Shown here one piece after another: positions 1-39,475 of a stretch of DNA of 40,910 bases. This DNA comes from Archangiaceae bacterium (GTDB lineage Bacteria; Myxococcota; Myxococcia; Myxococcales; Myxococcaceae). Position 1 is the stretch's first letter. Each line of letters begins with the position of its first letter. The stretch spans positions 1 through 40,910 of the forward strand of contig JAYVCD010000088.1 of the NCBI GenBank assembly GCA_043750125.1, in the 5' to 3' direction. Position numbers and translations under genes: made by a program. The notes under the pieces were generated by a model that saw nothing but the letters and a program-made list of their open reading frames with translations, was not told the DNA's origin and did not search any database.

Positions 1-3000
1 CCGTACCGGGGCTTGAACAGCTTCACCGAGGCCGACGCCGACGGATTTTTCGGCCGGGAAAAAGAAGCCGAAGCCTTCGCCAATCGGCTGCGAGAGAGCC
101 CGTTTCTGGGCGTGGTCGGCCCCTCGGGAGTCGGAAAGAGCAGCTTCGTCCAGGCCGGAGTGTTGCCGCTGCTCGCCGACGACTGGACCGCGCTGGTGGT
201 CCGGCCCGGGCAGTCGCCGATTGCAGCGCTGGCGGCGCGCCTGACCGCGGCCGGAATCGACGGAGACCGGGTGCTGGCGAGGCTGCTGAAGTCCCCCGAA
301 GTGCTGGGCGAGGTGTTGCGGGAAGCCGCCGCCCGCACCGGACGCAAGTACCTGCTGCTGGTGGACCAGTTCGAAGAGTTGCTCACCTTGTGTCTGAACT
401 CGGAGGAACAGATTGCCTATGCGGCCGCGCTCACCAGCGCCTGCCGGGCGATGGGGGACCCGGTTCGGGTGGTTGTCACGCTGCGGGACGATTTTCTGAT
501 TCGGGCCCAGGGGCTGCCGCCGCTGGTGGACAAGCTGAGTCAGGGGCTGCAGTTGCTGACGACTCCGGCCGAAGCGGACCTGCTGCGAATTTTGATCGAG
601 CCGCTGAAGCGGGTCGGCTACCTGTTCGAAGACACCCAACTGCCGGTGCTGATGGTCAAAGGGGTGGCCGACCAGCCGGGCGCGCTGGCGCTGCTGTCCT
701 TCGCCGCCACTCAGCTGTGGGAAGTGCGAGACCGGCAGTTCAAGCGGTTGACCCGAAAGGCCTACGACGCGCTGGGAGGAGTGGGCGGCGCGCTGGCCCA
801 GCACGCCGAGAAAGTCGTCGAAGGAATGTCGGAGGCCGAGCAGCCGATTTTGAAACAGGCGTTCCGGCACCTGGTCTCGAGCCAGGGCACCCGCACCGTG
901 TTGTCCTACGCCGAGCTGATGGAGCTGCTGGGAAGCTCAGCGTCGTCGCGAAAGGTGGTCGAGGCGTTGGTGCAGTTTCGATTGTTGGTCGCTTCCGAAG
1001 GGGTGGGGGGCGAAGAGCGAATCGAAATCATTCACGAAGCGCTGCTCACCTCGTGGCCGCGGCTGGTGAAGTGGCAGCGTGAAAATGCCGAGAACGCGCG
1101 GTTGCGCGACGCGATTCGAGCCACCGCCCGGCAGTGGAACGACAAGGGCCGCCCGAGGGGAATGCTGTGGCGGGAAGAGACGCTGGCCGAATACAAGGTC
1201 TGGCGGGCCCGGTACACGGGGGCACTGACCCGGGTCGAAGAAGACTTCACCCGGGCCGGCCTGGCCGAAGAGTCGGGGGCCCGCCGCCTTCGCAATGGGT
1301 TGATCATCGCTGCCGGGGTCGCGTTGACGGTGGGGTTGATCGTGCTGGCTCGGGCGAATCAGCGGGCCGAAGCGAATGCCGAACGGGCCCAGGCGAAGGC
1401 GGCCGAATCGGCGTTGCGGCTGGCGCGCTCGACCGCGGAACAAGGCCGGCAGGCCTATCTGGCCGGGCGCCCGCGCGAGGCGATGGGGCTGCTCGAGGCT
1501 GCGACCGACGCGGGCCTGCGCACCGCCGGAACGAGCTACCTGCTGGATCGAATTCGCCATTCGGCCACTGCAGAAAAAGGCGGGCGGGACTTTCACAAGT
1601 CGGTGATGACGGTCGCGATTTCTCCAAACGGCGCGCAGCTGGCGGTCAGCCTGACCGATGGAACCGTGCTGTTCGTCGATCGCCATACGCTGGCGACCGT
1701 TCAGGAGATCCAGCCCGGAAAGCGCAATCAACGGGCGATCAGCTGGAGCCACGATGGCTCGGTGCTGTTGATGTGTGGCGAAGACGGGTCGCTGTTCTTG
1801 TTCGAGGCCGCGACCCGCGCGCGCCTCGGATCCCTGCACCTCGAGGAATCGCGACTCAGTGACTGTCAATTCTCGCCCGATGACAAATCGATCGTCGCCG
1901 TCTCTATCACCGGCCATTCGTACCTGGTGAGCCGAACCCCGGAGCTGGCGCTTCGGGGGACCTGGACAGTCGAGCAGGGATTGCGGCACGTGTCGGTCAG
2001 CCCGTCGGGAAAACGGTTTGTGCCCTTGACGCTCAGCAATTTCAACGGCGCCCAGTCGGCCGATTCGCGCGAACCGATTTTGTCGATGGTGGGGGCGGCT
2101 CCGATTTGGCTCACCGGTTTTCGGGGAGGCGGGTTTCGATCGGCCACGTGGTCGAGTGACGAAAAGAAGCTGTTCACGGGAGGCGAAGACGGGGTGATTC
2201 GGATCTGGGATGTGGCCACCGGCCGCCCGGAAGCCAGTCTGGTTGGACACCAGGGCCCGGTGAGCCGGGTGAGCATGCTCGGCACTGGAACCCAGCTGGT
2301 CAGCACCGGCGTCGACGGCTCGCTTCGCACCTGGGATCTTCCGACCCGGATGATGGTGATGAACCTGCAGGCGCATGCCGAGCAGGCCAATGACCTGGCG
2401 GTGATTGAGGGGGGCCTGGTGACCGGCGGGGCGGACGGCGTCGTTCGGGTCTGGTCGACCAGCGGTCAGCTTCGACACCTGCACTCGGTGCACGACGGAG
2501 TGATTTCCGTGCTGCTCGTCGACGCCCAGGTGGACGAAGTTCTCTCTGGCGGCATGGACGGCTGGCTGAAAATCCAGCGCCTTTCTTCGGCCGACTACAC
2601 GAAGGCGATGTTGCTGCCTTCCGACACGGGGGCGGCCGCATTGGCGATGAATCAGGGAGTGCTGGGGGTCGGCCGCTACGACGGTCCGATTGCCTTGTAC
2701 CCCCTGGATGGCGGAACGCCGGCCCCGGTGCCGCACGGGAAGCTGCAGGAAGACCACATTCTCGCGCTCAGCCCGGGCGGCAACCTGGTCGCCCTCGAAA
2801 AACGGGGGAAAGTCGAGATCCTCGACACTGCGAGTGGCAAACAGCTCGCGCTGTTGGATGCCCATCGCGAAGAGATTGCGATGACCTTCGATTCCACCGG
2901 GAAGTTTCTACTCACGACGGCGCAGCAAGGTCCTCCGATGGTGTTTGCGACCCGCGATTGGGCTCGGCGCTCGTTTCCCGAGGACTTGAGCGTGACGGGA

Positions 3001-3441
3001 GCGGCGTTCGCCGACGAAACGGGGCAGGTGTGGGGCGGCACCAACACCGGCGAAGTGCTGTTGTGGGGGCGCGAGGGTTCCATCGTGCGTCGCAAGCAGG
3101 TGTTCAATTCGAGGACCAACGCGCTCGCTGCCTCGGCCGACGGAAAGTGGATTGCCGTGGCGGGCATTGATCAACGGCTGCGGGTGGTGCGGACCTCGAA
3201 TCTCGAAGTGGTGGCCTCGGCGGTGTCGACCGCTTCGGTCAATGTGCTTGGGTTCTCCTTCGATTCCCGCATGCTGGTTGCGGGGGACATCAATGGAACT
3301 ACGCAGATCTGGAACCTCGACCCCCTCGAGCTGGTGGACACCCGCCGAACGCCCAATCTGAACATGGTGATCCTGGCGCCGCGGCTGGGGGGTTACCTGA
3401 CGTTGAGCCTGTCTGGCGAGTTGGTGCTCTGGCCGATGTAG
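1..3441 (+). CDS. STAND-class (nSTAND1-like) P-loop NTPase with transmembrane helix and C-terminal WD40 beta-propellers; 5'-partial (N-terminus, probably a kinase or other effector domain, is outside the window)
   Basis: Frame is open from base 1 (PYRGLNSF..D..FFGRE, typical nSTAND1 start); Walker A GPSGVGKSS; Walker B LLLVDQFEEL; PGALALLSF; IIHEALL; hydrophobic LIIAAGVALTVGLIVLA; many WD repeats (GEDGVIRIWD, GVDGSLRTWD, GADGVVRVW). Confidence 0.9.
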   Translation, partial: PYRGLNSFTEADADGFFGREKEAEAFANRLRESPFLGVVGPSGVGKSSFVQAGVLPLLADDWTALVVRPGQSPIAALAARLTAAGIDGDRVLARLLKSPEVLGEVLREAAARTGRKYLLLVDQFEELLTLCLNSEEQIAYAAALTSACRAMGDPVRVVVTLRDDFLIRAQGLPPLVDKLSQGLQLLTTPAEADLLRILIEPLKRVGYLFEDTQLPVLMVKGVADQPGALALLSFAATQLWEVRDRQFKRLTRKAYDALGGVGGALAQHAEKVVEGMSEAEQPILKQAFRHLVSSQGTRTVLSYAELMELLGSSASSRKVVEALVQFRLLVASEGVGGEERIEIIHEALLTSWPRLVKWQRENAENARLRDAIRATARQWNDKGRPRGMLWREETLAEYKVWRARYTGALTRVEEDFTRAGLAEESGARRLRNGLIIAAGVALTVGLIVLARANQRAEANAERAQAKAAESALRLARSTAEQGRQAYLAGRPREAMGLLEAATDAGLRTAGTSYLLDRIRHSATAEKGGRDFHKSVMTVAISPNGAQLAVSLTDGTVLFVDRHTLATVQEIQPGKRNQRAISWSHDGSVLLMCGEDGSLFLFEAATRARLGSLHLEESRLSDCQFSPDDKSIVAVSITGHSYLVSRTPELALRGTWTVEQGLRHVSVSPSGKRFVPLTLSNFNGAQSADSREPILSMVGAAPIWLTGFRGGGFRSATWSSDEKKLFTGGEDGVIRIWDVATGRPEASLVGHQGPVSRVSMLGTGTQLVSTGVDGSLRTWDLPTRMMVMNLQAHAEQANDLAVIEGGLVTGGADGVVRVWSTSGQLRHLHSVHDGVISVLLVDAQVDEVLSGGMDGWLKIQRLSSADYTKAMLLPSDTGAAALAMNQGVLGVGRYDGPIALYPLDGGTPAPVPHGKLQEDHILALSPGGNLVALEKRGKVEILDTASGKQLALLDAHREEIAMTFDSTGKFLLTTAQQGPPMVFATRDWARRSFPEDLSVTGAAFADETGQVWGGTNTGEVLLWGREGSIVRRKQVFNSRTNALAASADGKWIAVAGIDQRLRVVRTSNLEVVASAVSTASVNVLGFSFDSRMLVAGDINGTTQIWNLDPLELVDTRRTPNLNMVILAPRLGGYLTLSLSGELVLWPM

Positions 3442-3476
3442 GGCCCGAGGGGCTGGCCCTGTCGGCGGCACGGTCA

Positions 3477-3499
3477 GACTGATCGCGCGAGGGCCAATC
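3477..3499. promoter_or_regulatory. Palindromic enhancer-like box, copy 1 (GACTG-N13-CAATC)
   Basis: GACTGatcgcgCGAGGGCCAATC; near-identical to 5035-5057 and at the same distance (1 bp difference) from a sigma54 motif. Confidence 0.65.
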
Positions 3500-3568
3500 T
3501 GGTCTTCGCAGGTCCTTCGAGATGATCGCCGCTTTCTGCGAGTGCAAGAGGTTGCGGGGCGCGAGCGT

Positions 3569-3584
3569 TGGATCAGCGCTTGCT
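3569..3584 (+). promoter_or_regulatory. sigma54-type promoter (-24/-12) of peptide gene 1
   Basis: TGGATCAGCGCTTGCT = GG-N10-GC with TTGC at -12; the GC ends 49 bp before ATG 3632. Confidence 0.65.
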
Positions 3585-3631
3585 CAAGCCTTCCTTCGTC
3601 GAGCACCCCGCAGCCCAACTGGAGAACAACA

Positions 3632-3751
3632 ATGAAAGAAATCAAGAAGCCGATCAAAGTGCTGGTGGTCCGTGAGCTCACCGCCGAAGAGACGGCTCAG
3701 GTGTGCGGAGCACAAATTGTTATTCGAAGCGTGAGCAGCACCCCCGTGTAG
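3632..3751 (+). CDS. Double-glycine-type leader peptide precursor 1 (39 aa; predicted core QIVIRSVSSTPV)
   Basis: GGAG RBS at 3621-3624; MKEIKKPIKVLVVRELTAEETAQVCGA|QIVIRSVSSTPV; EL-x3-E-x3-V-x-G-A leader pattern; paralog at 5186-5320. Confidence 0.85.
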   Translation: MKEIKKPIKVLVVRELTAEETAQVCGAQIVIRSVSSTPV

Positions 3752-3939
3752 AGCTGCACCCAAGCTTCACCGTCCCAGGGAAACGGCTGGCCATTCCTGG
3801 CCAGGCGGTGCCAGTGGGAGGTCCTCCTCGCTGGTCAGTGAAGGCCCAGGCGCGGCCGCGAGAAGTCGGCGTCGCCCGGGCTGTCGCACATCATTTGAGC
3901 TCAAACTACATTTCCGCCGAGTTGGCGGTGGCGAGTCGG

Positions 3940-3962
3940 TCTTGCTCTCTCGAGGGCCAATT
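3940..3962. promoter_or_regulatory. Degenerate third copy of the enhancer-like box, upstream of the MFP gene
   Basis: TCTTGcTCTCTCGAGGGCCAATT shares 16 contiguous bases (TCTCTCGAGGGCCAAT) with copy 2; no clear GG-N10-GC found downstream. Confidence 0.5.
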
Positions 3963-4032
3963 GGGTCGCGCCCGAGCTGGACGGGCGCGGGTCGATGACT
4001 CGGGGTAGATTGGTGTACCGTCGACCTTTGAG

Positions 4033-4956
4033 GTGTCTCTGATGATTTTCGGTCATTGGCTGACAGCCTCACTGATCGTCGTCCTCTTTGTCAGTGCCGG
4101 CTGGGAAATCAAACAGCAAACCTCGCGGCCCAATCGGCGTGAGACCGGGACGTTGCAGCAGCCCGGGGCAATCGCTGACCGCGACGCCCCGGAAATCGGA
4201 ATGGTGGGAGTGGTGGTCGCCAGGGACGACGCGCAGCTTGGTTTCCGAGCGCCGGGTCGGGTGCATCGGGTCGCCGTGGGAATGGGGGATCTCGTTCACG
4301 CTGGAGACCCGCTGGTCGAGCTGGAAACCGAAGAGCAGGCGCGCGAAGTCGGCACCGCTCAGGCCCGGGCGGTCGCGGCGCGAGCGGAGCAGACCGCCGC
4401 GCGGGTGCGACTGGCCGAAGTCACCGACCGTTTGAAGCGGGCCGAACAGACCGCCCAATACAGCGCTGCAGAAAAGCTGGAAGTCGCCCGCTGGGCGGTG
4501 ACCACGGCATCGGCGGGAATGGATCAGGCCGCCGCCCGAGTCGAAGAAGCCAACCAGGCGCTGCAGTTGGTGACGCTTCGCGCGGCCGGCAACACGCTGC
4601 GGGCGCCGTTCGACGGCACGGTGACCGATGTCTTCGTCCGCCGAGGAGCGCGGGTGATGACGGATCAACCGGTGCTGCGAATGATTGGCAGCGGCGAGCT
4701 GAGCGTGCGGTTCGCGGTTCCGCAGGCCCAGATGGCAACGGTGACCCGGGGCTCTGCACTGATGGTCGAGCTCGCGCCGAACTCCGAACCGATGCGAGCC
4801 ACGGTGTCCCGCATGACTCCCGGGTACGACCCGACGCTGAGGTACCGGCTCGCGGAAGCCCGCTTCGAACCCTCGAAGGGCCTGGGGGCGCTCACCGCGG
4901 GATCCCCGGTTACCGTCACTGCGCTGAAAGTTCCTGCGCGGGCCGAAGCGCACTGA
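4033..4956 (+). CDS. Efflux/type I secretion periplasmic adaptor (membrane fusion protein, HlyD/RND-MFP family)
   Basis: N-terminal hydrophobic anchor; lipoyl half motifs (PGRVHRVAVGMGDLVHAGDPLVEL; LRAPFDGTVTDVFVRRG) flanking a helical hairpin. Start could be ATG 4042. Confidence 0.85.
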   Translation: MSLMIFGHWLTASLIVVLFVSAGWEIKQQTSRPNRRETGTLQQPGAIADRDAPEIGMVGVVVARDDAQLGFRAPGRVHRVAVGMGDLVHAGDPLVELETEEQAREVGTAQARAVAARAEQTAARVRLAEVTDRLKRAEQTAQYSAAEKLEVARWAVTTASAGMDQAAARVEEANQALQLVTLRAAGNTLRAPFDGTVTDVFVRRGARVMTDQPVLRMIGSGELSVRFAVPQAQMATVTRGSALMVELAPNSEPMRATVSRMTPGYDPTLRYRLAEARFEPSKGLGALTAGSPVTVTALKVPARAEAH

Positions 4957-5034
4957 TCCGCCGGCAGGGACTGCTGCTCGCGTGGGCCGTTCCCGCTTTG
5001 CTTTCGGTGTCTCCTGTTGCCCGCCAAGAGTCCT

Positions 5035-5057
5035 GACTGTTCTCTCGAGGGCCAATC
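5035..5057. promoter_or_regulatory. Palindromic enhancer-like box, copy 2 (GACTG-N13-CAATC)
   Basis: GACTGttctctCGAGGGCCAATC; see copy 1. Confidence 0.65.
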
Positions 5058-5125
5058 AGATCGCCTTGAGGGCAAGGGCAGGTCGGGGACAAACGCCATT
5101 TCGGTGGCTTAGTTCCAGGCTTCGT

Positions 5126-5141
5126 TGGGTCTTCGTTTGCA
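5126..5141 (+). promoter_or_regulatory. sigma54-type promoter (-24/-12) of peptide gene 2
   Basis: TGGGTCTTCGTTTGCA = GG-N10-GC with TTGCA; preceded by cgt as in copy 1; the GC ends 46 bp before ATG 5186. Confidence 0.65.
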
Positions 5142-5185
5142 GAAGACAATCCATCGGAACCCACGCTGCATTCAACGGAGCCCAG

Positions 5186-5320
5186 ATGAAAGACATGAAG
5201 AAGCCGATCAAGGTGCTGGTGGTTCGGGAGCTCTCGGTCGAAGAGGTGGATCAAGTGCAAGGAGGGCTCGTCCAACCCTACTTGCGGAGCGCAAGCAGCA
5301 ACCCTCTCACCGCCAAATAA
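5186..5320 (+). CDS. Double-glycine leader peptide precursor 2 (44 aa; predicted core LVQPYLRSASSNPLTAK)
   Basis: GGAG RBS at 5177-5180; MKDMKKPIKVLVVRELSVEEVDQVQGG|LVQPYLRSASSNPLTAK; leader 19/27 identical to precursor 1. Confidence 0.85.
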   Translation: MKDMKKPIKVLVVRELSVEEVDQVQGGLVQPYLRSASSNPLTAK

Positions 5321-5419
5321 AACCAGATTCATTCGCAGGCCCGTGTGCCAACCCGGACATACATTAAGCCGTGGTTCGCGAACGCTGATCATTCCTCCGT
5401 CAGGCGAAGACGGACTCAG

Positions 5420-5443
5420 CCACCGAGGCGCACGCCTCGGTGG
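5420..5443. other. GC-rich perfect inverted repeat (possible transcript-stabilising or terminator-like hairpin)
   Basis: CCACCGAGGCG-ca-CGCCTCGGTGG; no U-tract. Confidence 0.4.
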
Positions 5444-5505
5444 GTTCCGTCGCGCCGGGCACCCGCGCTATAGGGTGTCCCGATGACAAACCCCGGGACG
5501 CGCGC

Positions 5506-6318
5506 GTGGATGCCCACCTGATCAAGCTCGACCAGGAACACCCTGGTTTTCGAGACCCCGAGTACCGAGTTCGCCGCGACGCGATTGCCCGACTGGCGCT
5601 GGCCCACCGGCGCGGCGACGCTCCGGCGCAGGTCGCCTACACCCCGGACGAAGGAAAAGTGTGGAACGGAGTGCTCGAGGCGCTGGCTCCGCTGCACGCC
5701 CGCTACGCCTGTAAGAGCTTCCTCGACGCCTGGCCCGGCCTGGGGTTCAACGGGCTGCGCATTCCCCAGCTGTCGGAAGTCAGTGCCCAACTGAAGAAGC
5801 GCACCCGCTTTTCCTACGAGCCGGTCGCCGGCCTGATGAGCGCCCGCGAATTCATGGAACGGCTGGCCGACCGCACCTTCCTCGCAACCCAGTACATGCG
5901 TCATCCCAGCATGCCGCTGTACACCCCCGAGCCGGACGTCATTCACGAGCTGGTCGGTCACGCCCCCTCGCTGAGCGATGAGCGCTACGCCCGCCTCAAT
6001 GAGCTGTTCGGAAAGGCGACGGCGGCTTCCAACGACACCACGGTTGAAGCGCTGATTCGAACCTACTGGTTCTGCCTCGAGTTCGGCCTCGTTCGCGAAG
6101 GCGGCGCGGTCAAGGCCGTCGGAGCCGGGTTGCTGTCCTCGTTCGGCGAGCTCGGCCGCTTCGAGAGCAACTCGACGCTGATGCCCTTCGAGCTGCAGCG
6201 CATCGCCCAGACCCCGTTCGACCCCACCCAATACCAGCAGACGCTGTTCGTGGCCGACTCGGAAGACGCGCTGCTCGCGACCTTGAGCCAGTGGCTCGAG
6301 CGCCTGGCCCGGGCGTAA
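5506..6318 (+). CDS. phhA: Phenylalanine 4-monooxygenase (biopterin-dependent aromatic amino acid hydroxylase)
   Basis: LDQEHPGFRDPEYR, RIPQL, PVAGLM, TQYMRHPSMPLYTPEPDVIHELVGH (Fe ligands), YWFCLEFGL, GAGLLSSFGE. Start uncertain (GTG 5506; ORF open from 5440). Confidence 0.88.
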   Translation: MDAHLIKLDQEHPGFRDPEYRVRRDAIARLALAHRRGDAPAQVAYTPDEGKVWNGVLEALAPLHARYACKSFLDAWPGLGFNGLRIPQLSEVSAQLKKRTRFSYEPVAGLMSAREFMERLADRTFLATQYMRHPSMPLYTPEPDVIHELVGHAPSLSDERYARLNELFGKATAASNDTTVEALIRTYWFCLEFGLVREGGAVKAVGAGLLSSFGELGRFESNSTLMPFELQRIAQTPFDPTQYQQTLFVADSEDALLATLSQWLERLARA

Positions 6319-12411: not shown

Positions 12412-12474
12412 CGGCCCCAGGGGGTGCAACTGAGAAGTAGCGCGCCGAAATCCACACGGTATGTTCGCGACAAG

Positions 12475-13191
12475 ATGAGTGACGTCAAACTGCCTGCGCA
12501 CCTGATCGAGGTGCTCGAAACCATGTCGCAGGAAATGGGAGTGCCCCGCGACGCGCTGGTGTCCCAGGCCGTCTTCCAGTTCGCGCGCCTCAGTGGATAC
12601 CTGGTGGCCGGTAAAAGCGCCGGGGTGACCGCGGCCCGAGCGCCAATTCGCCCCCACTCGGGCAACGCCGCTTCGAAAAAGCGTGCCCCGGACCCGGAAC
12701 CTCAGGACGACGAGGCGCCCGCGGAGGACGAGGAAGGCAACCCGTTCGACGAGCAGGTGCACGACGCTCCGCCGGAAGACGAGCCGATGGACGAGCCGGC
12801 GCAAGACGAAGAGCCGCCCCAGGAAGAAGAGGCACCTGCGGAAGACGAAGCGCCGCCCGAGGAAGAAGAGCCCGCCCCGCAGGTGAAGGGGAAGGGCTCG
12901 ACGATGGTCATCTCGATGGCCGGCCGCGAGTCGTACAAGATGACCGGAGACCAGGTGCTGCTCGGCCGCGGGAAGCACTGCGACTTCGTCATCGAGTCCA
13001 ATCGGGTCTCGCGCGAGCACGCCCGGTTCACCAAGAAGGGCACCGACTACTTCGTCGAAGACCTCGGCAGCTCGAACGGAACCTTCGTCGGCGCGGGGAG
13101 CAAAGAGAAGCTCACCGGCCCGAAGAAGCTCAAAGATGGCGACGATGTGACCTTCGGCACCGAGAAGGTGAAGGTCGCGATCAAGAAGTAG
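12475..13191 (+). CDS. FHA-domain protein with N-terminal ribbon-helix-helix-like segment and acidic linker
   Basis: FHA motifs LGRG..CD, VSREHA, VEDLGSSNGTFV, LKDGD; N-terminal VKLPAHLIEVLETMSQEMGVPRDALVSQAV; E/D/P-rich linker. Confidence 0.85.
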   Translation: MSDVKLPAHLIEVLETMSQEMGVPRDALVSQAVFQFARLSGYLVAGKSAGVTAARAPIRPHSGNAASKKRAPDPEPQDDEAPAEDEEGNPFDEQVHDAPPEDEPMDEPAQDEEPPQEEEAPAEDEAPPEEEEPAPQVKGKGSTMVISMAGRESYKMTGDQVLLGRGKHCDFVIESNRVSREHARFTKKGTDYFVEDLGSSNGTFVGAGSKEKLTGPKKLKDGDDVTFGTEKVKVAIKK

Positions 13192-14720: not shown

Positions 14721-16118
14721 ATGGAAAGAGTCGCAGCCACCTCGGGCCCGACTTCTTCCGAGGTTGCCTGTGGGGTGTGCAGCCAGCCAGTCGAGGGCGC
14801 GCGGTGCACCGGGTGTGGCGCCGCGCATACCGCCGGAGCATTTCGAATCACCCGGGTCATCGCGGTCACTCCTCACAGCCGGCTTTACGGTGCAGTCGGG
14901 CCCGGCGGGCAAACCGTCGCGCTCAAAGAGCTGCTGTTTGCCACCGTGCCCACCATCGAACAGGTCGAGGCTTTCGAGCGGGAGGCGAAGCTGCTTCAGC
15001 AGCTCGACCATCCCGCGATCCCCCGGTTTGTCGCGAGCTTCTCCGAAGGAACAGGCCTGGGCCTGCGGCTCTACCTGGCCCAGCAGCTGGTCCCCAGCGA
15101 CTCGTTGCAGAGCCGGGTAGGCCATCGTCCATTCACCGCGGCCGAGGCGATTCAGTGTGCCGAGGCGCTGCTGGAAGTCCTGCGGTACCTCCACCAGCGT
15201 ACGCCACCGCTGCTGCATCGCGACCTCAAGCCAGCCAACGTGATCCAACGCCCGGACGGGACACTGGCGTTGGTCGACTTCGGGTCCGCACGCATTCTGA
15301 GCTCCACGGTCACCCACGGAGCCACGCTGGTCGGCACCTTCGGGTACATGGCGCCGGAACAGCTGGGCGGAACGGTGAGCACCCGCAGCGATCTCTACGC
15401 GCTGGGCGCCACGCTCGTTACGCTTCTGACCGGCAAGCCGCCCTGGGAGCGGATGAACGATCAGCTCGCGCTCGAGCTCAAGGGCCCACAAGTGCCCGAC
15501 CCCCTGCGCAAATTCCTGAGCCGGCTGCTCGCCGTCAGGCCGGCCGACCGCTTCTCCTCTGCGGGCGCTGCGCTCGCGTTCTTGCGCCGCCCCTGGTACC
15601 GCCGAGGGACTTCAGCCGCAATCTTCCTCGCAACCGCACTGGTCGGCGTGGCAGTGGCCGGGCTCGCTCTGGGCCACCCACAAGCGGTGGACTTCTGGTT
15701 CTACGCGCGCAGCTTCTTGCCCAACGGCTCGGGCGCTTCCAATCGGACCCAGACCCGTGCGAGCGCGGAGATCGGGAAGACGGTTGAAATCTCCGGGCCG
15801 GTCGAAGTCCGGGTCGGGACCGTGACCCGCTCTTCGTGGGCCGACGGAGCGGAGTCGATCTCCGTCGACCTGGATTTGGCCAATCGACTGCCCGAGCCGT
15901 TTGGGCTTCCCGCAGCTGCGTTGCAGCGAACAGTCCGCATTCGCACCCACAGCGGGACGATGGTGGCAGCGCACCCGCTGCGAAATCTCCCTCGCATGCT
16001 TCCGGGGAGCACGTTGCGGCTGCAACTGCACTTCGACCTCGCCACCCAGGACTTCCCGCTGGAATTCGTCTTCGAGGACGGCCAGGTCGTCGCGCCCGAC
16101 TTGAAGCTGCGACCGTGA
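14721..16118 (+). CDS. Ser/Thr protein kinase with N-terminal Zn-ribbon, TM helix and C-terminal extracytoplasmic domain
   Basis: CGVC...CTGC; VALKEL; LLHRDLKPANVI; LVDFG; GTFGYMAPEQ; SDLYALG; TM AAIFLATALVGVAVAGLAL. Confidence 0.88.
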   Translation: MERVAATSGPTSSEVACGVCSQPVEGARCTGCGAAHTAGAFRITRVIAVTPHSRLYGAVGPGGQTVALKELLFATVPTIEQVEAFEREAKLLQQLDHPAIPRFVASFSEGTGLGLRLYLAQQLVPSDSLQSRVGHRPFTAAEAIQCAEALLEVLRYLHQRTPPLLHRDLKPANVIQRPDGTLALVDFGSARILSSTVTHGATLVGTFGYMAPEQLGGTVSTRSDLYALGATLVTLLTGKPPWERMNDQLALELKGPQVPDPLRKFLSRLLAVRPADRFSSAGAALAFLRRPWYRRGTSAAIFLATALVGVAVAGLALGHPQAVDFWFYARSFLPNGSGASNRTQTRASAEIGKTVEISGPVEVRVGTVTRSSWADGAESISVDLDLANRLPEPFGLPAAALQRTVRIRTHSGTMVAAHPLRNLPRMLPGSTLRLQLHFDLATQDFPLEFVFEDGQVVAPDLKLRP

Positions 16119-16246
16119 AATTTTCGCAGGCGATTTCGAGCCTGCGGAGCGCTGAACGGCTGAGCAGAATTCCAGCCTTCGTCGACCTGTTTTTATCTAT
16201 TACGAAATTTTGACATATGCGTAAACATCGCGTTATTTATCGCGCG

Positions 16247-17005
16247 ATGCCTTTCTCCGCCCGGCAGAGCGTCGAGCTCTTTCATCTGCACTTCCTCCGT
16301 CAGCTTGCGGCGGGAACCGATCGGGCGCTCTTCGTGCTGAAGGGGGGCTGCAACCTCCGTTTCTTTTTCGAAAGCTTCCGATACTCGGAAGACATGGATC
16401 TCGACGTCCGGGTGATGACCCGGGCGACCCTGAAGAACAAGGTCGAACGCCTGCTCGATTCCCCGGCCCTGCGCCTGCCGCTGAGGGTGCAGGGGCTCGA
16501 AGTCGTCGAAGTCTCGGCCCCGAAACAAACCGAGACCCCTCAGCGTTGGAAGCTCGGGCTCAAGTTGACCGGACACTCCGTCCCACTGCGGACGAAAGTC
16601 GAGTTCTCGCGACGGGGTGATGCCGAGGGGACGATCGAGGCGGTGAACGGAGCGGTGGCGCGGGCGTATGGAGTCACGCCTCCGGTGGTGAGCCACTACC
16701 TGGCTCCGGCGGCGATCGTTCAGAAAGTCCAGGCGCTGATCGGCCGGCCACAGACCCAGGCTCGCGACGTGTTCGACTTGCAGGTGCTGCGGGCCAAATC
16801 CTCTTCGTCGGTTCGCGTCGGCGAGCCCATCAAGCGGCAGATCCCGCAAGCCATCGAGCGGGTGATGGCGCTTTCGTACGACGACTACCTCGCTCAGGTC
16901 GTCGCTTACCTGTCGGAAGATCAGGCCCCCGCGTTTCGCGATCGAGAAGTCTGGGATGCGATGCAGCTCGAGGTGGTCGAGCTCCTCGAAAGGCTGCAAG
17001 CGTGA
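16247..17005 (+). CDS. AbiEii/AbiGii-family nucleotidyltransferase toxin (type IV TA)
   Basis: FVLKGGCNLRFFF..RYSEDMDLD nucleotidyltransferase motif; KVEFS; KVQAL..R..ARDVFDL. AT-rich promoter with TTGACA at 16210-16215. Alternative start 16217. Confidence 0.85.
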   Translation: MPFSARQSVELFHLHFLRQLAAGTDRALFVLKGGCNLRFFFESFRYSEDMDLDVRVMTRATLKNKVERLLDSPALRLPLRVQGLEVVEVSAPKQTETPQRWKLGLKLTGHSVPLRTKVEFSRRGDAEGTIEAVNGAVARAYGVTPPVVSHYLAPAAIVQKVQALIGRPQTQARDVFDLQVLRAKSSSSVRVGEPIKRQIPQAIERVMALSYDDYLAQVVAYLSEDQAPAFRDREVWDAMQLEVVELLERLQA

Positions 17006-17619
17006 ACGCGTCGCTGGCCTATTCGCGCCTGCTCTCGCTGGGCCCGCCCGTGGTCCGGACGTCTGAGGTCGCAGCCGTGTTGGGCAGCACCGCGCTCGCC
17101 GCCAGCCAGACGCTGCGAAGGCTGGCGGCGGCCGGGTTGGTGAAGCCGCTGCGGCACGGGCTCTTCTGGGTGAAGCAGGAGCCCATCGATTCGTGGGTCG
17201 CGTTGGATTGGATCGCAGCGCCCTACCCGGCGTACGGCTCGCTCTACAGCGCGCTCTACCTGCACGGAGTGCTCTCGCAGCTTCCCCAGACCCACTACGC
17301 GGTCACGCTCGGCCGGACCCAGAAGGTCCAGACGGCCGCCGGGGCCTATTCACTTCATCAAATGGCGCCCGAGGTGTTTGGTGGGTTCGAGACTCTGGGC
17401 AGCGGCGCGAAGCTCGCCACGGTGGAGAAGGCGCTGTTCGATCTCGCCTACCTCGCCGACACGCGCTCGCGGCTGTTTGCACGTCCACCGGAGCTCGAGC
17501 TGCCGGCCCGGGTCAATCGCGCAGAGCTGAGTCGATGGGTTCAACGGATCAAGGATCCGCGACGGCAGACGCTGGTGCGACTTCGGCTGGACGGGTGGAT
17601 CAAGGCCAGCCGCAGGTGA
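17002..17619 (+). CDS. AbiEi-family antitoxin / transcriptional regulator (type IV TA)
   Basis: N-terminal wHTH (EVAAVLG..ASQTLRRLAAAGLVKPLRHGLF); YGSLYSALYLHG; ATVEKALFDL; GTGA coupling to the toxin gene. Confidence 0.82.
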   Translation: MNASLAYSRLLSLGPPVVRTSEVAAVLGSTALAASQTLRRLAAAGLVKPLRHGLFWVKQEPIDSWVALDWIAAPYPAYGSLYSALYLHGVLSQLPQTHYAVTLGRTQKVQTAAGAYSLHQMAPEVFGGFETLGSGAKLATVEKALFDLAYLADTRSRLFARPPELELPARVNRAELSRWVQRIKDPRRQTLVRLRLDGWIKASRR

Positions 17620-24104: not shown

Positions 24105-26411
24105 ATGTCTACCGTGTCGGACCCGCCATTCGTAAAACCCACGTCCGAGTTTGATCGCCGGACCCTCGGGAAGTACGAGCTGCTTTGTCGACTGTCGACA
24201 GGCGGAATGAGTGAGATTTTTCTCGCGACCCAGAAAGGTCTGGCGGGCTTTCGAAAAATCGTGGTCCTCAAATCGATTCTTCCGGACATCCGCGGGGAAG
24301 ACGAGTTCGTAAAGATGTTCCTCGAAGAGGCGCGAACCACCGCGGCCTTCAATCACCCCAACATCGCGCAGGTCTTCGACCTCGACACCGACAGCGGGAT
24401 GCTCTTCCTCGCGATGGAGTTCGTGCAGGGCGCCACGCTGGTCGAGATGGCCCGCGCCTGCCGCCAGGCAAAAGAGCCGATTCCCCTCGGCTTCACCCTC
24501 GCCTCGGTGCGCGACACCGCGCTCGCCCTTCACTACGCCCACACCTTCATCGACCCGCGCGGCCGCAAGCAGATCGTGATTCACCGCGACGTGGCCGAGA
24601 AGAACATCATGGTGAGCTACGACGGGACCACCAAGCTGCTCGACTTTGGAATTGCCAAGGCGCTCGGGCGACGCAGCGGCAGCCTCACTTCGATTGGAAT
24701 GGTCAAGGGCACCAGCGGCTACATGTCGCCCGAGCAGATTCGGGGTGAGCCGTTGGATCCCCGCAGCGACGTCTTCGCTCTCGGGGTCGTGCTTCATGAA
24801 TGCCTGACGGGAATGCGGCTGTTCCACGGGAAGAACGCCGAGGACGGAATGCTGGCCGCGCTGCGCGAAGACGTGCAGCCGCCCTCGCGCCTGAGCCCCG
24901 ATGTGCCGGCCGCGATCGACGCCGTCACCCTCAAAGCGCTGGCCCGCGATCGCGACCAGCGCTACGGCACCGCGCTCGAGCTGGCCCGGGCGATCGAAAA
25001 GGCCTGCCCCGGAGCGCTGTGGCACGCCGAGCAGTCCGGAGACCTGGTTCAGCGGTTCTACAACGAGCGTCGCCAGCAGACGCGCGACCTGATTGAGAAC
25101 GCGCAGCGGGGGCAGGAGCCCACCGGTGAGCTGCGGCTGGACAAGGTGTTCGCCGCGGTCGGCGGCCGGCCCCAGTCGAACATCGGCAAAGCGCCGACGC
25201 CTCCGGCGGGAAACCTGGTGCCTTTGCCGACTCCGCGGCGGGAAACAGCGCAGACGGTTCCGCTGCGTCCCGCGGGGCGAGACATCAAAACGGTTCCGGG
25301 GGTGGCGCAGCGGGTCTCGGGAGAAAAGCCGGTGCTGCCCAGTGACGAGACGACGGGCTCCGATGGGCGCTTGCCTGTCCCTTCGGCCAAAGAAGTCACC
25401 GAGCTGCACTTCGATGCGGACGAGCAGGCGGCGGCCTTCGACGACGAGGACTCGGCCAAGACCATTCCGGCCACCTCGCTGCCGGTCGCGCTGCTGGCCC
25501 AGCTGCGCGCCAACCGCGCCCGCGAGCCCGAGGCCGTTCCGGCGGCAGCGCACAGCCCGCTGACCGAACCGCAGCCTCCGGCGTTGCGGCATTCGAACGT
25601 GGTGCTCGCGGCCGTCTACGACCCTTCGACCGAAGGGGACACCACCACCTCGACCACCGGCCCGGTTCAGCCCAACTCCGACATCGTCGACGGGCCGGAC
25701 CTGGGGACGAAGACCGCGATTGATCGCCCCTTCGATACCCGCAGCGACGACGACCGGTTTGACGGCTCGACGAAGACCGGTTTCATCCTCCCGGGGGGCG
25801 GTCGGGGAAGGTTGATCCTGATCGGGCTGGCGCTGGCCGCGGTGGCGATCGGGGGCACGCTGTTCGCGCTGAAAGCGGGGCCCTTTGGCGAGCTGCCCTC
25901 GGGCCCTCAGCCCGCGAGCAAGCTTCCCGGAACCTTCCCCCATCGGGCCGAGACGCTGCCGGTGCCCGAACACCCCCACCCGGCCGAGCCGGTGCCCGTT
26001 CCGGGTCGGGTGGAGCCGCGAATTCCAACTGCGGATCCGTTGCCGACGGGCGCGGCAAAGAAAATCGAAGTGAAGCCCGAGCCTAGGCCAGACCCGAAGG
26101 CAGTCCGCAGACCGCTGCGCGAGCCGACCCGCGAGCCCGCTCGGGAAGTCGTGCGCGAGCCGGTCAAGCGCAAGCCTTCCGAGCCGAGGAACGAGACCCC
26201 GGTGCTGCTGGGCAGCGTCTCGCTGGTGGTGGAGCCTCCGGTGCACGTCTTCTTCGCTGGAAAGGATCTCGGAACGACGCCGCTGAAGGCCACGCTTCCG
26301 GTGGGAAAGCAGACCCTGAAGTTCGTTCCGTCCGAGGGTCCTTCGAAGACGGTCAGCGTAGAAGTCAAAGAAGCCGGCGGTGCAGCCCGCTTCGACCTCG
26401 AAGACCTGTAG
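24105..26411 (+). CDS. Membrane Hanks-type protein kinase with atypical catalytic loop (HRDVAEKN) and C-terminal PEGA-like domain
   Basis: LSTGGMSEIF, VVLK, HRDVAEKN, DFGIAK, GTSGYMSPEQ; TM LILIGLALAAVAIGGTLF; DLGTTPL..LPVGKQ. Confidence 0.9.
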   Translation: MSTVSDPPFVKPTSEFDRRTLGKYELLCRLSTGGMSEIFLATQKGLAGFRKIVVLKSILPDIRGEDEFVKMFLEEARTTAAFNHPNIAQVFDLDTDSGMLFLAMEFVQGATLVEMARACRQAKEPIPLGFTLASVRDTALALHYAHTFIDPRGRKQIVIHRDVAEKNIMVSYDGTTKLLDFGIAKALGRRSGSLTSIGMVKGTSGYMSPEQIRGEPLDPRSDVFALGVVLHECLTGMRLFHGKNAEDGMLAALREDVQPPSRLSPDVPAAIDAVTLKALARDRDQRYGTALELARAIEKACPGALWHAEQSGDLVQRFYNERRQQTRDLIENAQRGQEPTGELRLDKVFAAVGGRPQSNIGKAPTPPAGNLVPLPTPRRETAQTVPLRPAGRDIKTVPGVAQRVSGEKPVLPSDETTGSDGRLPVPSAKEVTELHFDADEQAAAFDDEDSAKTIPATSLPVALLAQLRANRAREPEAVPAAAHSPLTEPQPPALRHSNVVLAAVYDPSTEGDTTTSTTGPVQPNSDIVDGPDLGTKTAIDRPFDTRSDDDRFDGSTKTGFILPGGGRGRLILIGLALAAVAIGGTLFALKAGPFGELPSGPQPASKLPGTFPHRAETLPVPEHPHPAEPVPVPGRVEPRIPTADPLPTGAAKKIEVKPEPRPDPKAVRRPLREPTREPAREVVREPVKRKPSEPRNETPVLLGSVSLVVEPPVHVFFAGKDLGTTPLKATLPVGKQTLKFVPSEGPSKTVSVEVKEAGGAARFDLEDL

Positions 26412-29002: not shown

Positions 29003-30736
29003 ATGGCGCGGGCCACTGCCGATGTGCCGATGGGTGAGGACCTCTATCGGGGGAGGAAAATCGGCAAATACGAGATCCTGACCCAACTGACCTCGGGAGG
29101 AATGGCCGAGCTCTTCCTCGGCTACACCGCCGGCCCGGGTGGATTTCGAAAGTACGTGGTGGTGAAGCGGATTCTCCCCGACGCGAAGGACAATGAGCAG
29201 TTCGTGAAGATGTTCCTCGATGAGGCGCGGATTACCGCGGCCTTCAACCACCCCAACATCGGGCAGGTGTTCGACCTGGGTGAGGACGGAGAAGGCCTGT
29301 ACCTCGCGATGGAGTTCATCGCGGGGCAGAACCTGAACCAGGTGACCGGGGCTTGCGCGAAGAAGCGGGCGGTGCTGCCGATTGGACTGTCTGCGTCGGT
29401 GGTCCACGACCTCGCCCTTGCGCTGCACTACGCGCACACTTTCAGGGATCCTGCAGGCAAGGCGTTCCCCGTCATTCACCGCGACGTGGCGCAGAAGAAC
29501 GTGATGCTCACCTACGGCGGGATGGTGAAGCTGCTCGACTTCGGAATCGCCAAGGCGAGGGGAAGCCTGGGGCGCACCAATGCCGGAACGGTGAAGGGCA
29601 CCACCGGGTACATGTCGCCTGAGCAGGTTCGCGGCGAAGAGCTCGATGGGCGCAGCGACGTCTTCTCGGTGGGAGTGGTGCTGTGGGAAATGATCACCGG
29701 CCGAAGGCTCTTCTCGGGCGATACCGAGATCGACGAGATGAAGCAGATTCTCTCCGCGCCCATCGCGGCCCCGTCCGAGCTGGTTCCGGTGATTCCCGAT
29801 ACGCTTTCGGACATCACGTTGCGCGCGCTGTCCCGCGAGCGCTCGGACCGCTTTCCGACCGCGAAAGATTTCGCGCGCGCGATGCAGCTGGCCTGCCCCG
29901 AGCTGTTGTTTGATCAAGATCAACGCGCGACCTTCATGACCGAGATGTTCGAAGAGAAGGTCGTCGCGACCCAGGCGCTGCTCGAGTCGGCGGGCGGCGA
30001 GATGGAAAAATCGGCGGTGCTCAACGCGGTCAGCCTGCTTCGCGACGACGCCAGCTTCCCCGAGACGGAAGCCCGCCCGGCGCCCAGGCTTCGCAAGCGC
30101 GCGACGCACGTGCCGCCCAGGCGCAAGGTGACCCACAGCGAGCTCGAGCAGAAAGTCGCCGAGCAGGCGGTCGCGATTGCCCTGCTGGCGGGGCCGGAGC
30201 AACCAAGGGTCCCGAAGACCAACCCCGATGGGCTCGCGCCCCACGAGGACTCGAAGAGCCAGCTGAAGGGAAACCTGGTGCTGCTGCTGATTGCGGTGCT
30301 GACCGCTCTGGGGGGCGTCGCGGTCTACCGGTACATCTGGAATGCCTCGGATTCGGGCGGTGAGGCGACGGCGTACAACGCCAATGCGCCGGTGCCGGGG
30401 ATGCTGGACCCCACTCCCATCAGACCGCCTCCGGGTTTCGGGGGCGGTCCTCCTCAGCCCGATGAGCCCCGCACCGCGGCGGCCGAGCCTGCGCCGAAGC
30501 CCACGGCCCGACCGTCGGGCACCGTCACCCTCGCCATCTTTCCCGAGGCGCTCGTCTCGCGGGGGAAGACAACGCTGGGGAAAACGCCCCTGTTCAACGT
30601 GAGCCTTCCGGCAGGAACGCACCTGCTGACGGTGGTGGGCGAGGACAAGGTCAAGCGGGGCCTGTCGGTGCAGGTTCAGGCCGGGAAAAATTCGATCTTC
30701 AAGCTCGGTCTGGAAGACATTCCACCCGCGAAGTAG
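29003..30736 (+). CDS. Membrane Hanks-type protein kinase with atypical catalytic loop (HRDVAQKN, DspB-like) and PEGA-like C-terminus
   Basis: LTSGGMAELF, VVVKRI, HRDVAQKN, DFGIAK, GTTGYMSPEQ; TM LVLLLIAVLTALGGVAVY; LGKTPL..LPAGTH. Start may be ATG 29030. Confidence 0.9.
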   Translation: MARATADVPMGEDLYRGRKIGKYEILTQLTSGGMAELFLGYTAGPGGFRKYVVVKRILPDAKDNEQFVKMFLDEARITAAFNHPNIGQVFDLGEDGEGLYLAMEFIAGQNLNQVTGACAKKRAVLPIGLSASVVHDLALALHYAHTFRDPAGKAFPVIHRDVAQKNVMLTYGGMVKLLDFGIAKARGSLGRTNAGTVKGTTGYMSPEQVRGEELDGRSDVFSVGVVLWEMITGRRLFSGDTEIDEMKQILSAPIAAPSELVPVIPDTLSDITLRALSRERSDRFPTAKDFARAMQLACPELLFDQDQRATFMTEMFEEKVVATQALLESAGGEMEKSAVLNAVSLLRDDASFPETEARPAPRLRKRATHVPPRRKVTHSELEQKVAEQAVAIALLAGPEQPRVPKTNPDGLAPHEDSKSQLKGNLVLLLIAVLTALGGVAVYRYIWNASDSGGEATAYNANAPVPGMLDPTPIRPPPGFGGGPPQPDEPRTAAAEPAPKPTARPSGTVTLAIFPEALVSRGKTTLGKTPLFNVSLPAGTHLLTVVGEDKVKRGLSVQVQAGKNSIFKLGLEDIPPAK

Positions 30737-32075: not shown

Positions 32076-32229
32076 GCCGGCCTCACAGACGAGATGCGCA
32101 CAGTTCGAGCCCAACCCCGGAATCAGTGAAGAAGCAAAAGGGCGGCATCTCTACCTGCGCGCGGGAAGAGGGATCAAGTACTTTGGTCAACTCCGCGTAA
32201 CCGAAAGCGGTTTTGGAAGGTCGAAAGCT

Positions 32230-32424
32230 TGTGGACAGCCGGGGCCGGAAAGTCGGCGCTGTTTCGCAATCGGGCCCAATGGGATGTTGCTGAAAGTACG
32301 TTTGGCGCAAAGGCCCACCCGGGGAAGAATCGGGAGGTCTGTCCACAGCCGGGCGCTGTCGGGCCGGACGACTTCTCAACATTCCCCACAGGTTTTCCAC
32401 AGCTCGGGGGCGAAGATTTCCACA
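32230..32424. promoter_or_regulatory. Cluster of DnaA-box-like 9-mers in the dnaA-rpmH intergenic region
   Basis: TGTGGACAG (32230), CTGTCCACA (32339), TTCCCCACA (32382), TTTTCCACA (32393), ATTTCCACA (32416) versus consensus TTWTNCACA. Confidence 0.7.
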
Positions 32425-32572
32425 GGACAACCGGTGGTGGGAACCGAGGCTGCGGCCTGATCCACCCGGCTCGGGAAAGAAAGGCGGCGGCGAGCGTTGA
32501 AAGTGGCGCCACAGTCCGCTAAGTGCCGCCGCTTCTCCTGTCAGCCTGACACGTCAGCAAAAGGATCTTCCC

Positions 32573-32728
32573 GTGAAGCGCAAGCCAACTTACCAACCTT
32601 CAAAAATCAAACGGAACCGCGCCCACGGTTTCCGGAAGCGCAATTCCACCAAAGCGGGCCGCGGCATCCTCAAGAAGCGGATGGCGAAGGGCCGCAAGCG
32701 TCTGGTCGTGAAGTCGTACCAGAAGTAG
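32573..32728 (+). CDS. rpmH: 50S ribosomal protein L34 (absent from the ORF track)
   Basis: Manual translation from [62 protein letters not shown]; canonical position. Confidence 0.95.
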
Positions 32729-35145: not shown

Positions 35146-35175
35146 ACTGTGCCGGCCTGACGGTCGGCAAGAGGG

Positions 35176-35910: not shown

Positions 35911-35915
35911 CGAAC

Positions 35916-39468: not shown

Positions 39469-39475
39469 GAGGGGG

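Follow-up and report, generated by a model that had tools for sequence, protein, structure and literature searches.

The gene cluster and its division between two contigs

The subject of this study is contig JAYVCD010000088.1 (contig C88) of the Archangiaceae bacterium assembly GCA_043750125.1, a stretch of 40,910 nucleotides (nt) that we call the window and that makes up the entire contig. The assembly comprises 6.17 Mb in 460 contigs and is 89% complete; its genome is labelled G000 where it has to be told apart from those of relatives. Within the first 5,320 nt, the 3′ part of a gene encoding a STAND NTPase, a transmembrane (TM) helix and a WD40 region is followed by a double-glycine peptide gene, a gene for a membrane-fusion protein (MFP) and another double-glycine peptide gene. 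Judged from its sequence, this part of the window belongs to a gene cluster of about 21 kb, of which it forms the 3′ end and which the assembly has split between contigs C7 and C88. An original prediction made from the DNA letters had named these four genes on one strand, and all four were confirmed on the plus strand. It had also placed the transporter and the activator outside the window, where they were indeed located: the rest of the window holds neither, and both lie on C7. The features of the window (open reading frame, ORF; ribosome-binding site, RBS; amino acids, aa) are as follows.

1 to 3441, plus strand: C-terminal part of the STAND gene, 1146 aa, frame open at the window start (whole protein about 1800 aa)
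Residues 1-386 of this ORF: nSTAND1 NTPase (Pfam E 4.4e-101)
Residues 434-452 of this ORF: TM helix, the protein's most hydrophobic 19-mer (mean Kyte-Doolittle 2.33)
Residues about 530-1146 of this ORF: WD40 propeller region (WD40/beta-propeller family matches over about 530-1114)
3477 to 3504, plus strand: box copy 1, core CGAGGGCCAAT at 3488-3498, 82 nt upstream of the -24 GG of peptide gene 1
3569 to 3584, plus strand: -24/-12 element of peptide gene 1, TGGATC-N5-TTGCT, predicted transcription start near 3594
3621 to 3624, plus strand: GGAG, RBS of peptide gene 1, 7 nt before the ATG
3632 to 3751, plus strand: peptide gene 1, 39 aa, leader MKEIKKPIKVLVVRELTAEETAQVCGA, predicted core QIVIRSVSSTPV (12 residues)
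3940 to 3967, plus strand: box copy 2, core at 3951-3961, upstream of the MFP_B gene
4033/4042 to 4956, plus strand: MFP_B, 307 aa with an N-terminal TM anchor, the second adaptor besides MFP_A
5035 to 5062, plus strand: box copy 3, core at 5046-5056, 81 nt upstream of the -24 GG of peptide gene 2
5126 to 5141, plus strand: -24/-12 element of peptide gene 2, TGGGTC-N5-TTGCA, predicted transcription start near 5151
5177 to 5180, plus strand: GGAG, RBS of peptide gene 2, 5 nt before the ATG
5186 to 5320, plus strand: peptide gene 2, 44 aa, leader MKDMKKPIKVLVVRELSVEEVDQVQGG, predicted core LVQPYLRSASSNPLTAK (17 residues)

The features on C7, in order, are the following; after LanB the gene order continues with the STAND kinase, peptide 1, MFP_B and peptide 2.

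Start of the cluster on C7: histidine kinase, then an NtrC-type sigma-54 activator (RR-AAA-HTH_8, by Pfam)
After the NtrC-type activator: EBP2, a second enhancer-binding protein, a sigma-54 activator of the FHA / GGDEF-like / AAA+ / HTH type
After EBP2, next to the transporter: MFP_A
C7:27547-29775: PCAT, a C39-peptidase ABC transporter (domains C39, ABC_membrane, ABC_tran)
After PCAT: TolC-like protein
Between the TolC-like gene and LanB: ORF of 333 aa, for which the ESM Atlas was uninformative
Opposite strand: full-length LanB dehydratase (Lant_dehydr_N E 5e-131, Lant_dehydr_C E 6e-60)
G000:C7:35228-37207: Ser/Thr kinase N-terminus and linker of about 300 aa (Pkinase E 8.7e-35 on the C7 tail)

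Contig C7 is 37,209 nt long, and its 3′ end abuts the window start with an open frame that encodes a Ser/Thr kinase and about 400 aa further, which is the Pkinase N-terminus that the original prediction had proposed to look for. The tail of C7 aligns with residues 15-584 of a full-length 1772-aa homologue from a relative (G024) at 42% identity over 617 aa. At the junction, the last residues on C7 are ...EK followed by two bases of an Ala codon, and the first on the window are PYRGL; the G024 counterpart reads ...ERAPYRGL. Logan contigs from four runs, placed on window 1-2500, reach 186-671 nt past window base 1.

Two related double-glycine peptide genes

The two precursors are 64% identical as proteins, and their DNA is 81% identical over 79 nt. 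Among the 26 leader codons compared, 15 are identical, 4 differ synonymously and 7 non-synonymously, and the 75 nt upstream of both genes cannot be aligned except for the promoter elements. Double-glycine leaders follow the consensus L-S-x-x-E-L-x-x-I-x-G-G, with hydrophobic residues at -4, -7 and -12, an acidic residue at -8, G at -2 and G, A or S at -1. The peptide 2 leader fits this consensus, with L-12, S-11, E-8, V-7, V-4, G-2 and G-1; that of peptide 1 has L-12, T-11, E-8, T-7 (not hydrophobic), V-4, G-2 and A-1, and ends in GA. A leader hidden Markov model (HMM) of 24 positions, made from eight leaders, scores peptide 1 at 37.7 bits and peptide 2 at 37.2 bits in the locus scan described below, and over the whole of the own genome it gives two strong matches (38.0 and 37.8 bits), the next best being 11.8.

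Outside this framework the peptides are isolated. Neither reaches any curated model in Pfam or NCBIfam (best NF038167, E 0.095), and tblastn of the own genome with the peptides returned just the two copies. Peptide 2 alone as a query found relatives in none of 60 related genomes, a search of 5.8 billion proteins at lengths of 21-77 aa gave the two window peptides and no others, and back-translated leader patterns gave no confirmed match in genome and metagenome contig collections. Relatives of the peptides surfaced only via synteny with the STAND gene plus the leader HMM. Just 3′ of peptide gene 1, the inverted repeat CTGGCCA ttcc TGGCCAG, with its flanks at window 3779-3812, could be a terminator or attenuator that has no T-run.

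The pairing of STAND kinase and peptide in related genomes

The linker of about 300 aa between kinase and NTPase served as the marker of the subfamily. Of 208 family genomes, 11 have the architecture of kinase, linker, nSTAND1, TM helix and WD40 region, with 33 places in all. Across the phylum, the linker occurs in 11 of 401 genomes sampled; it is present in none of four genomes of the same genus, and is expanded to 8 copies (G155) and 11 copies (G156) within one genus. A scan of the genome contig collection was of no use for distribution, since its query took in the C-lobe of the kinase and the matches were generic kinases of many phyla. The best matches to the STAND and MFP genes share contigs in G023 and G024. 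The full-length kinase-STAND-WD40 gene of G024 is followed by three double-glycine ORFs; G023 has two MFPs and a PCAT, then the STAND gene, then an EBP2 orthologue. An EBP2 orthologue also comes after the STAND gene in G007, and G166 has a peptide, an EBP2 orthologue and a LanB there.

The leader HMM was scanned over 32 relatives' loci at a threshold of 9.8 bits, with 20 loci (306 kb) around another nSTAND1 subfamily as controls. At this threshold, 18 of the 32 loci yielded double-glycine ORFs, 20 in addition to the two of the window, and another peptide 1.3 kb beyond MFP_B in G218 brings the number of loci to 19. The best score in the control loci was 3.1 bits. The co-occurrence of leader and STAND-WD40 gene that had been suggested as a check is thus seen in 19/32 relatives' loci and 0/20 control loci. 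When only loci with at least 500 nt of downstream flank are considered, a peptide is present in 16 of 21 (17 with the G218 extension). In 11 loci the peptide lies downstream on the same strand as the STAND gene, as it does in the window. In judging these numbers it should be kept in mind that eight of the 22 peptide ORFs, the seed leaders, match the HMM by construction; the other 14 do not.

Other components of the cluster recur at fewer loci. The N-terminal domain of EBP2 was found at 7 of 33 loci, compared with none of the 20 controls. LanB is present at 6/33, and most loci have no modification enzyme within the fetched stretch. A histidine kinase of the cluster's type was found at one of the 32 relatives' loci, with no NtrC partner in the stretch read. 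At G156:C689 (L080:10293-11639), a histidine kinase 65% identical to that of our cluster lies beside a STAND paralogue.

Predicted sigma-54 promoters and a repeated box

Sigma-54 promoters are characterized by GG at -24 and GC at -12 at a fixed spacing, with flanks resembling TGGCAC and TTGCW. The original prediction gave each peptide gene an RBS and a GG-N10-GC promoter, and both were recovered, the former as GGAG at 5-7 nt and the latter as -24/-12 elements that precede the start codons by 63 nt (peptide 1) and 60 nt (peptide 2), each with five of seven flanking matches to the consensus. Of the 22 peptide genes of the own genome and its relatives, 12 have a -24/-12 score of at least 5 at a distance of 38-89 nt before the leader match, a score that occurs upstream of 3 of 185 other large ORFs in the same loci and in a background of 148 of 10,000 random windows. 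The gene rpoN is present in the own genome, on contig C457. Within window 3300-5600, we found no sigma-70-like site, two terminator-like sites that are within shuffle expectation, and no Rfam family, the only match being a chance one to a snoRNA (E 0.11).

The repeated box is a candidate activator-binding site. Its core 11-mer, CGAGGGCCAAT, occurs six times genome-wide (both strands, 6.17 Mb), three of them within this locus; with two mismatches allowed, the C7 part has 8 occurrences, about the chance expectation. The original prediction had described the same palindrome upstream of each peptide gene. The shared element was borne out, with a third copy before the MFP gene; as a palindrome it amounts to a weak dyad. 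A strong palindrome was considered and rejected, the shared dyad being just CTCGAG, in two of the three copies, and "box" is therefore the better name. In the 110-nt gap between EBP2 and MFP_A, a stretch at L067:9235-9265 (G000:C7) shares CTCTCGAG and ...AAATGGGGT with the box; it may be a degenerate fourth copy before the MFP_A, PCAT and TolC-like genes, which we regard as only a hint.

Five loci of relatives (in G007, G024, G130, G166 and one of the G167 loci) carry a word with TGCGCA about 100-125 nt upstream of the peptide promoter, and in most of the five (L087, L065, L032, L031, L069) this word is a TGCGCA-N4-TGCGCA dyad. An EBP2 orthologue lies within the fetched stretch at three of the five, and the own locus has a different box. 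The dyad is a likely site of binding for the FHA-type activator.

Exporter, modification enzyme and regulators

The original prediction had asked for a C39-ABC transporter in the genome, and one is found in the cluster itself, together with an MFP and a TolC-like gene. This PCAT is the sole detected C39 match of the genome (89% complete) and lies about 5.3 kb upstream of the start of the kinase gene. It retains DCG and HF stretches, which we take to be the C39 motifs with the catalytic Cys and His. MFP_B reaches the RND_mfp model TIGR01730 (105.8 bits, cut-off 94.9) and matches HlyD_3 (E 1.5e-15); with the type-I HlyD model TIGR01843 it stays below the cut-off (32.5 vs 208.65). No transporter lies next to MFP_B in the window, PCAT being next to MFP_A on C7, and MFP_B-like genes adjoin MFP_A/PCAT in G023, G155, G218 and G024.

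LanB has a single match in the own genome. No match to LanC (PF05147) was found in this 89% complete genome, a weak negative, as the control genomes gave none either. QIVIRSVSSTPV and LVQPYLRSASSNPLTAK, the predicted cores, contain Ser/Thr and no Cys, the only Cys being at -3 in the leader of peptide 1; since the own cores are without Cys, we do not file the products as lanthipeptides.

Two sets of regulators are encoded in the cluster. The original prediction had proposed a sigma-54 activator of the FHA-AAA-HTH type. An activator is indeed present as EBP2, and FHA scores above the Pfam cut-off in five of seven EBP2 copies (G023 38.7, G155 46.7, G166 30.2, G167 28.5 and G218 23.6 bits); the own copy is not among them, its N-terminal region of about 245 aa having no firm Pfam match and a weak GGDEF-like one. 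FHA in the G007 copy scores 18.9 bits, below the cut-off. The other set is the pair formed by the NtrC-type activator and the histidine kinase, which has a weak 4HB_MCP-like sensory module (E 4e-4). With this pair in the cluster, the earlier suggestion that the system is unlike those based on histidine kinases is not established.

Domains and predicted topology of the STAND kinase

The nSTAND1 match (PF20703) scores 339.7 bits, with a cut-off of 27.1, and is full-length, covering model positions 1-378 of 379. The top hydrophobic 19-mer lies directly after the NTPase in 17 of 18 full-length homologues, with an excess of K/R on its N-terminal side in most. The K/R-rich N-terminal side of this conserved TM helix predicts a topology in which kinase and NTPase are cytoplasmic and the WD40 region is outside. 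The 18 full-length homologues, a set that excludes the split own protein and one homologue with an internal stop, share on average 0.58 pairwise identity in the kinase, 0.43 in the linker, 0.61 in nSTAND1 and 0.21 in the WD40 region. Between the DLG and APE motifs, the activation segment of the own kinase contains an insertion of roughly 90 aa with many Pro, Thr and Ser residues (L067:18400-18800, G000:C7); the corresponding insertion in the G024 homologue is much shorter.

Short and variable peptide cores

The leaders are conserved, and the predicted cores, of 5-28 aa, are unrelated between loci. Examples are APKVNW, GRGPY, HGMPSIF, LICKFPRM, EGPSYGCGR and VATGSCCGA, and many have one to three Cys (short-core loci: L031:10457-11177 in G024, L070, L085, L069, L065, L032, L093, L030, L078, L083, L094, L080, L075, L088, L082, L079, L091, L087 and L097). 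Where a core linked to LanB was seen (n=5), Ser/Thr is present in 5/5 and Cys in 4/5. When the peptide 2 precursor was co-folded with residues 495-1146, the WD40 region, the score was 0.00 with the mark at 0.34, in a run without controls that counts neither way. At G186:C1248 (L066/L060:1-700) there are two tandem double-glycine peptides with near-identical leaders and Cys-rich cores of 33-38 aa.

Other genes in the window

A gene for a biopterin-dependent aromatic amino-acid hydroxylase (window 5440-6318, Pfam E 1.3e-77) begins 120 nt after peptide gene 2. Window 9403-30736 is dense in signalling genes, including a receiver protein, an FHA protein (12424-13191), a LysR regulator and a chemoreceptor, and the window encodes three further Ser/Thr kinases (14721-16118, 24105-26411 and 29003-30736). 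An AbiEii/AbiEi type IV toxin-antitoxin pair is located at 16217-17619. The genes dnaA (minus strand), yidC, mnmE, mnmG and rsmG occupy 30753-40209, which places the peptide cluster about 25 kb from the likely replication origin region.

Discussion

Given the gene content, the conserved adjacency and the enrichment of promoters, the STAND kinase and the double-glycine peptides are very likely linked in function with sigma-54 and the exporter. As the most likely role, we propose a circuit for the production and sensing of peptides in which the STAND kinase is the receptor, and give this proposal, with its ligand binding and feedback, an even chance of being correct. In such a circuit, both precursors would be transcribed from sigma-54 promoters and LanB would possibly dehydrate Ser/Thr in the cores. 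PCAT would then cleave after GA/GG, and the 12- and 17-residue cores would be exported via MFP_A, MFP_B and TolC. The periplasmic WD40 domain of the STAND kinase would read the exported peptide, oligomerization driven by the NTPase would switch the kinase on, and the kinase would activate EBP2, which would bind the repeated box and fire the peptide genes' sigma-54 promoters. MFP_B, with its own upstream copy of the box, may share this control, though no -24/-12 element was found there. Cleavage, export, dehydration, binding of peptide to WD40, the connection from kinase to EBP2, a box-binding activator and positive feedback are all steps that we infer from the genes and their sequences.

Several observations weigh against this circuit. 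The join of C7 to C88 is based on protein homology rather than on a spanning read. Behind the box copy before MFP_B, no -24/-12 element stands at the distance that it has in the peptide genes, and the own EBP2 gives no FHA match at E values up to 5. Within the fetched stretches, EBP2 is found in 7 and PCAT in 5 of 33 loci, so that most copies would need shared components encoded elsewhere. A peptide was at first not found in 5 of the 21 loci with downstream flank, one being found later (G218). The own cores cannot be compared with anything, since no relatives from outside the family appeared in the protein and contig collections. None of the RNA runs is listed as containing window 3300-5500. 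If peptide and sensor diverged together, core similarity should follow WD40 similarity; the correlation is weak (Spearman 0.13, permutation p about 0.18, n=13 loci). The divergence of WD40 may itself come partly from misaligned repeats, and hypervariable sensors would suit an immune reading too. Finally, the histidine kinase/NtrC pair in the cluster could be the true regulator; together with LanB, this pair gives some plausibility to a nisin-like route and to a RiPP-antibiotic reading (RiPP, a peptide made by ribosomes and modified after translation).

Consider the last of these, a RiPP or bacteriocin cluster whose peptides are end products with antimicrobial or other activity, LanB dehydrating them in the loci that have it, and whose STAND kinase and sigma-54 activator do no more than turn on production at some other extracellular cue (prey, competitors, envelope stress), so that the peptides are not WD40 ligands. 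We hold this account possible, if doubtful. A full-length LanB, PCAT, two MFPs and a TolC-like gene are a typical set for export and modification, and the recurrence of LanB beside cores with Ser/Thr and mostly Cys, the Cys-rich nature of many cores elsewhere, and the weak correlation of core with WD40 similarity all agree with it. However, many cores have just 5-12 residues (GRGPY, APKVNW, HGMPSIF), and typical pore-forming bacteriocins are longer than that. The modification enzyme is also missing from most of the fetched stretches, the own cores have no Cys, and LanC was not found (a weak point, as the control was silent). Moreover, if the cue were unrelated to the peptide, there would be no obvious reason for a one-to-one pairing of hypervariable peptide and sensor in up to 8-11 copies per genome. 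A nisin-type autoinduction, with the membrane histidine kinase and NtrC regulator at the 5′ end sensing the peptide and driving the sigma-54 promoters while the STAND kinase has another job, seems very improbable to us. The kinase with its weak 4HB_MCP-like module does stand next to an RR-AAA-HTH_8 activator in the cluster, and the 65%-identical kinase adjoins one STAND paralogue in G156. Yet that is the single case among the 32 relatives' loci, there without an NtrC partner in the stretch read, whereas the adjacency of STAND gene and peptide is found at 19 of them.

A further account is an NLR-like role in conflict or allorecognition, where WD40 would detect non-self (foreign peptides, phage, competitor molecules), the kinase would be the effector and the peptide a toxin, tag or decoy. 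In Kaur et al. 2021 (PMC8195603), nSTAND1 is defined in predicted counter-invader systems with kinase or FHA effector domains, and another study has diversity-generating retroelements diversifying nSTAND1 targets in multicellular bacteria (bioRxiv 2023.09.22.558884). A hypervariable sensor, lineage expansion to 8 and 11 copies and a patchy distribution, with no copy in four same-genus genomes, are in keeping with such a role. Nevertheless, with its conserved TM helix the protein would expose the sensor outside the cytoplasm, where it would not meet intracellular invaders; the link to sigma-54 promoters, a dedicated activator and an exporter suggests gene regulation and not abortive infection; and no nuclease, TIR, caspase or other death effector was seen among the selected ORFs scanned in the loci read. 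We thus consider an immune function improbable. That the small ORFs are not genes at all, and resemble double-glycine peptides by chance, is hardly credible. Their lack of Pfam or NCBIfam membership (NF038167 being the best at E 0.095), of homologues in large databases and of any RNA run listed with the locus would agree with it. Against this, the coding regions of the paralogues are conserved where the upstream DNA is unalignable, an RBS precedes each of the two at 5-7 nt, the leader HMM sets 22 ORFs (at least 9.8 bits) apart from the controls (at most 3.1), and the peptide promoters are enriched for -24/-12 elements.

The proposed sensing circuit can be compared with several known systems. 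In the Gram-positive circuits ComC/ComAB/ComDE and BlpC/BlpAB/BlpHR, double-glycine pheromones are exported by C39-ABC transporters and recognized by histidine kinase receptors, with pherotypes. Our locus resembles them in having a short double-glycine peptide gene beside a sensor gene, a C39-ABC transporter and a peptide that varies between lineages; a G024 peptide gives sub-threshold matches to ComC (13.6 bits, cut-off 50) and to a bacteriocin-like peptide family. It differs in that the proposed sensor is a Ser/Thr kinase with a STAND NTPase and an outward WD40 region, the proposed output a sigma-54 activator, the exporter a Gram-negative tripartite one with two adaptors, and the host a myxobacterium. 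The class I lanthipeptide clusters of nisin and subtilin comprise LanB, LanC, LanT and NisRK, are autoinduced and use an FNLD-type leader. Shared with these are the full-length LanB, Ser/Thr-rich cores and a two-component pair, and self-induction would be expected. However, LanC was not found here, the own cores lack Cys, a double-glycine leader stands in place of the FNLD type, export would be by PCAT, and most related loci are without LanB.

Closest to the receptor half of the circuit are the nSTAND1 proteins, predicted to act in counter-invader conflict systems (Kaur et al. 2021, PMC8195603). Our protein agrees with those descriptions in its NTPase family by Pfam, an N-terminal kinase module, C-terminal repeat sensors and occurrence in bacteria of multicellular habit. 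It departs from the descriptions in the accessible part of PMC8195603 by the TM helix between NTPase and sensor and by the 300-aa linker, and the sigma-54-driven double-glycine peptides, the FHA-type activator and the exporters go beyond them.

On the output side, Jelsbak and colleagues are said to have described, in 2005, FHA-domain sigma-54 activators and Ser/Thr kinase networks of Myxococcus xanthus. The proposed route from a Ser/Thr kinase through an FHA enhancer-binding protein to a sigma-54 promoter is similar; here, however, kinase and activator are encoded beside their likely target, a secreted-peptide precursor, and the kinase has STAND and WD40 parts. PknD of Mycobacterium tuberculosis is a receptor Ser/Thr kinase with one TM helix and an extracellular NHL propeller. 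The predicted topology of our protein is alike, with a cytoplasmic kinase, a single TM helix and an extracytoplasmic propeller sensor, and the G024 STAND protein has a sub-threshold match to the NCBIfam PknD model (121 bits, cut-off 839). In contrast to PknD, an NTPase switch and a linker (about 700 aa together) lie between kinase and membrane, the propeller is WD40 and not NHL, and a candidate ligand gene is adjacent.

Searches of the main text of full-text papers gave none that links STAND/WD40 kinases with double-glycine peptides, PCATs or sigma-54. A paper on sigma-54 and natural products deals with polyketide and non-ribosomal genes, and its searched text does not mention RiPPs, lanthipeptides or FHA (PMC7910581); the word nSTAND is absent from PMC7159879.

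As far as we know, descriptions of Gram-negative bacteria include no dedicated peptide receptor of this kind, and bacterial STAND or NLR-like proteins are currently read as intracellular immune sensors. The parts of the cluster are of known kinds, from peptide autoinduction circuits, RiPP clusters and STAND sensors, and we see a real possibility of a new receptor class. We put forward, tentatively and as less probable than not, a class of membrane-spanning, NLR-like STAND Ser/Thr kinases whose periplasmic WD40 domains would read short, hypervariable peptides exported by PCAT and would signal via an FHA-type activator to sigma-54 promoters. If this holds, the paralogous pairs of peptide and receptor, up to 11 per genome, would be private channels of communication or kin recognition in social myxobacteria.

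At minimum, the predicted promoters imply that sigma-54 control in myxobacteria reaches ribosomal peptide precursors, and the loci offer a set of very short, unexplored peptide products, some of them linked to LanB. Beyond this, the conserved pairing is a candidate for a different signalling architecture, one that joins a hypervariable exported peptide, a hypervariable outward WD40 sensor and a sigma-54 promoter, often with a dedicated FHA-type activator, and it may be a basis for private signalling or kin recognition in these social bacteria.

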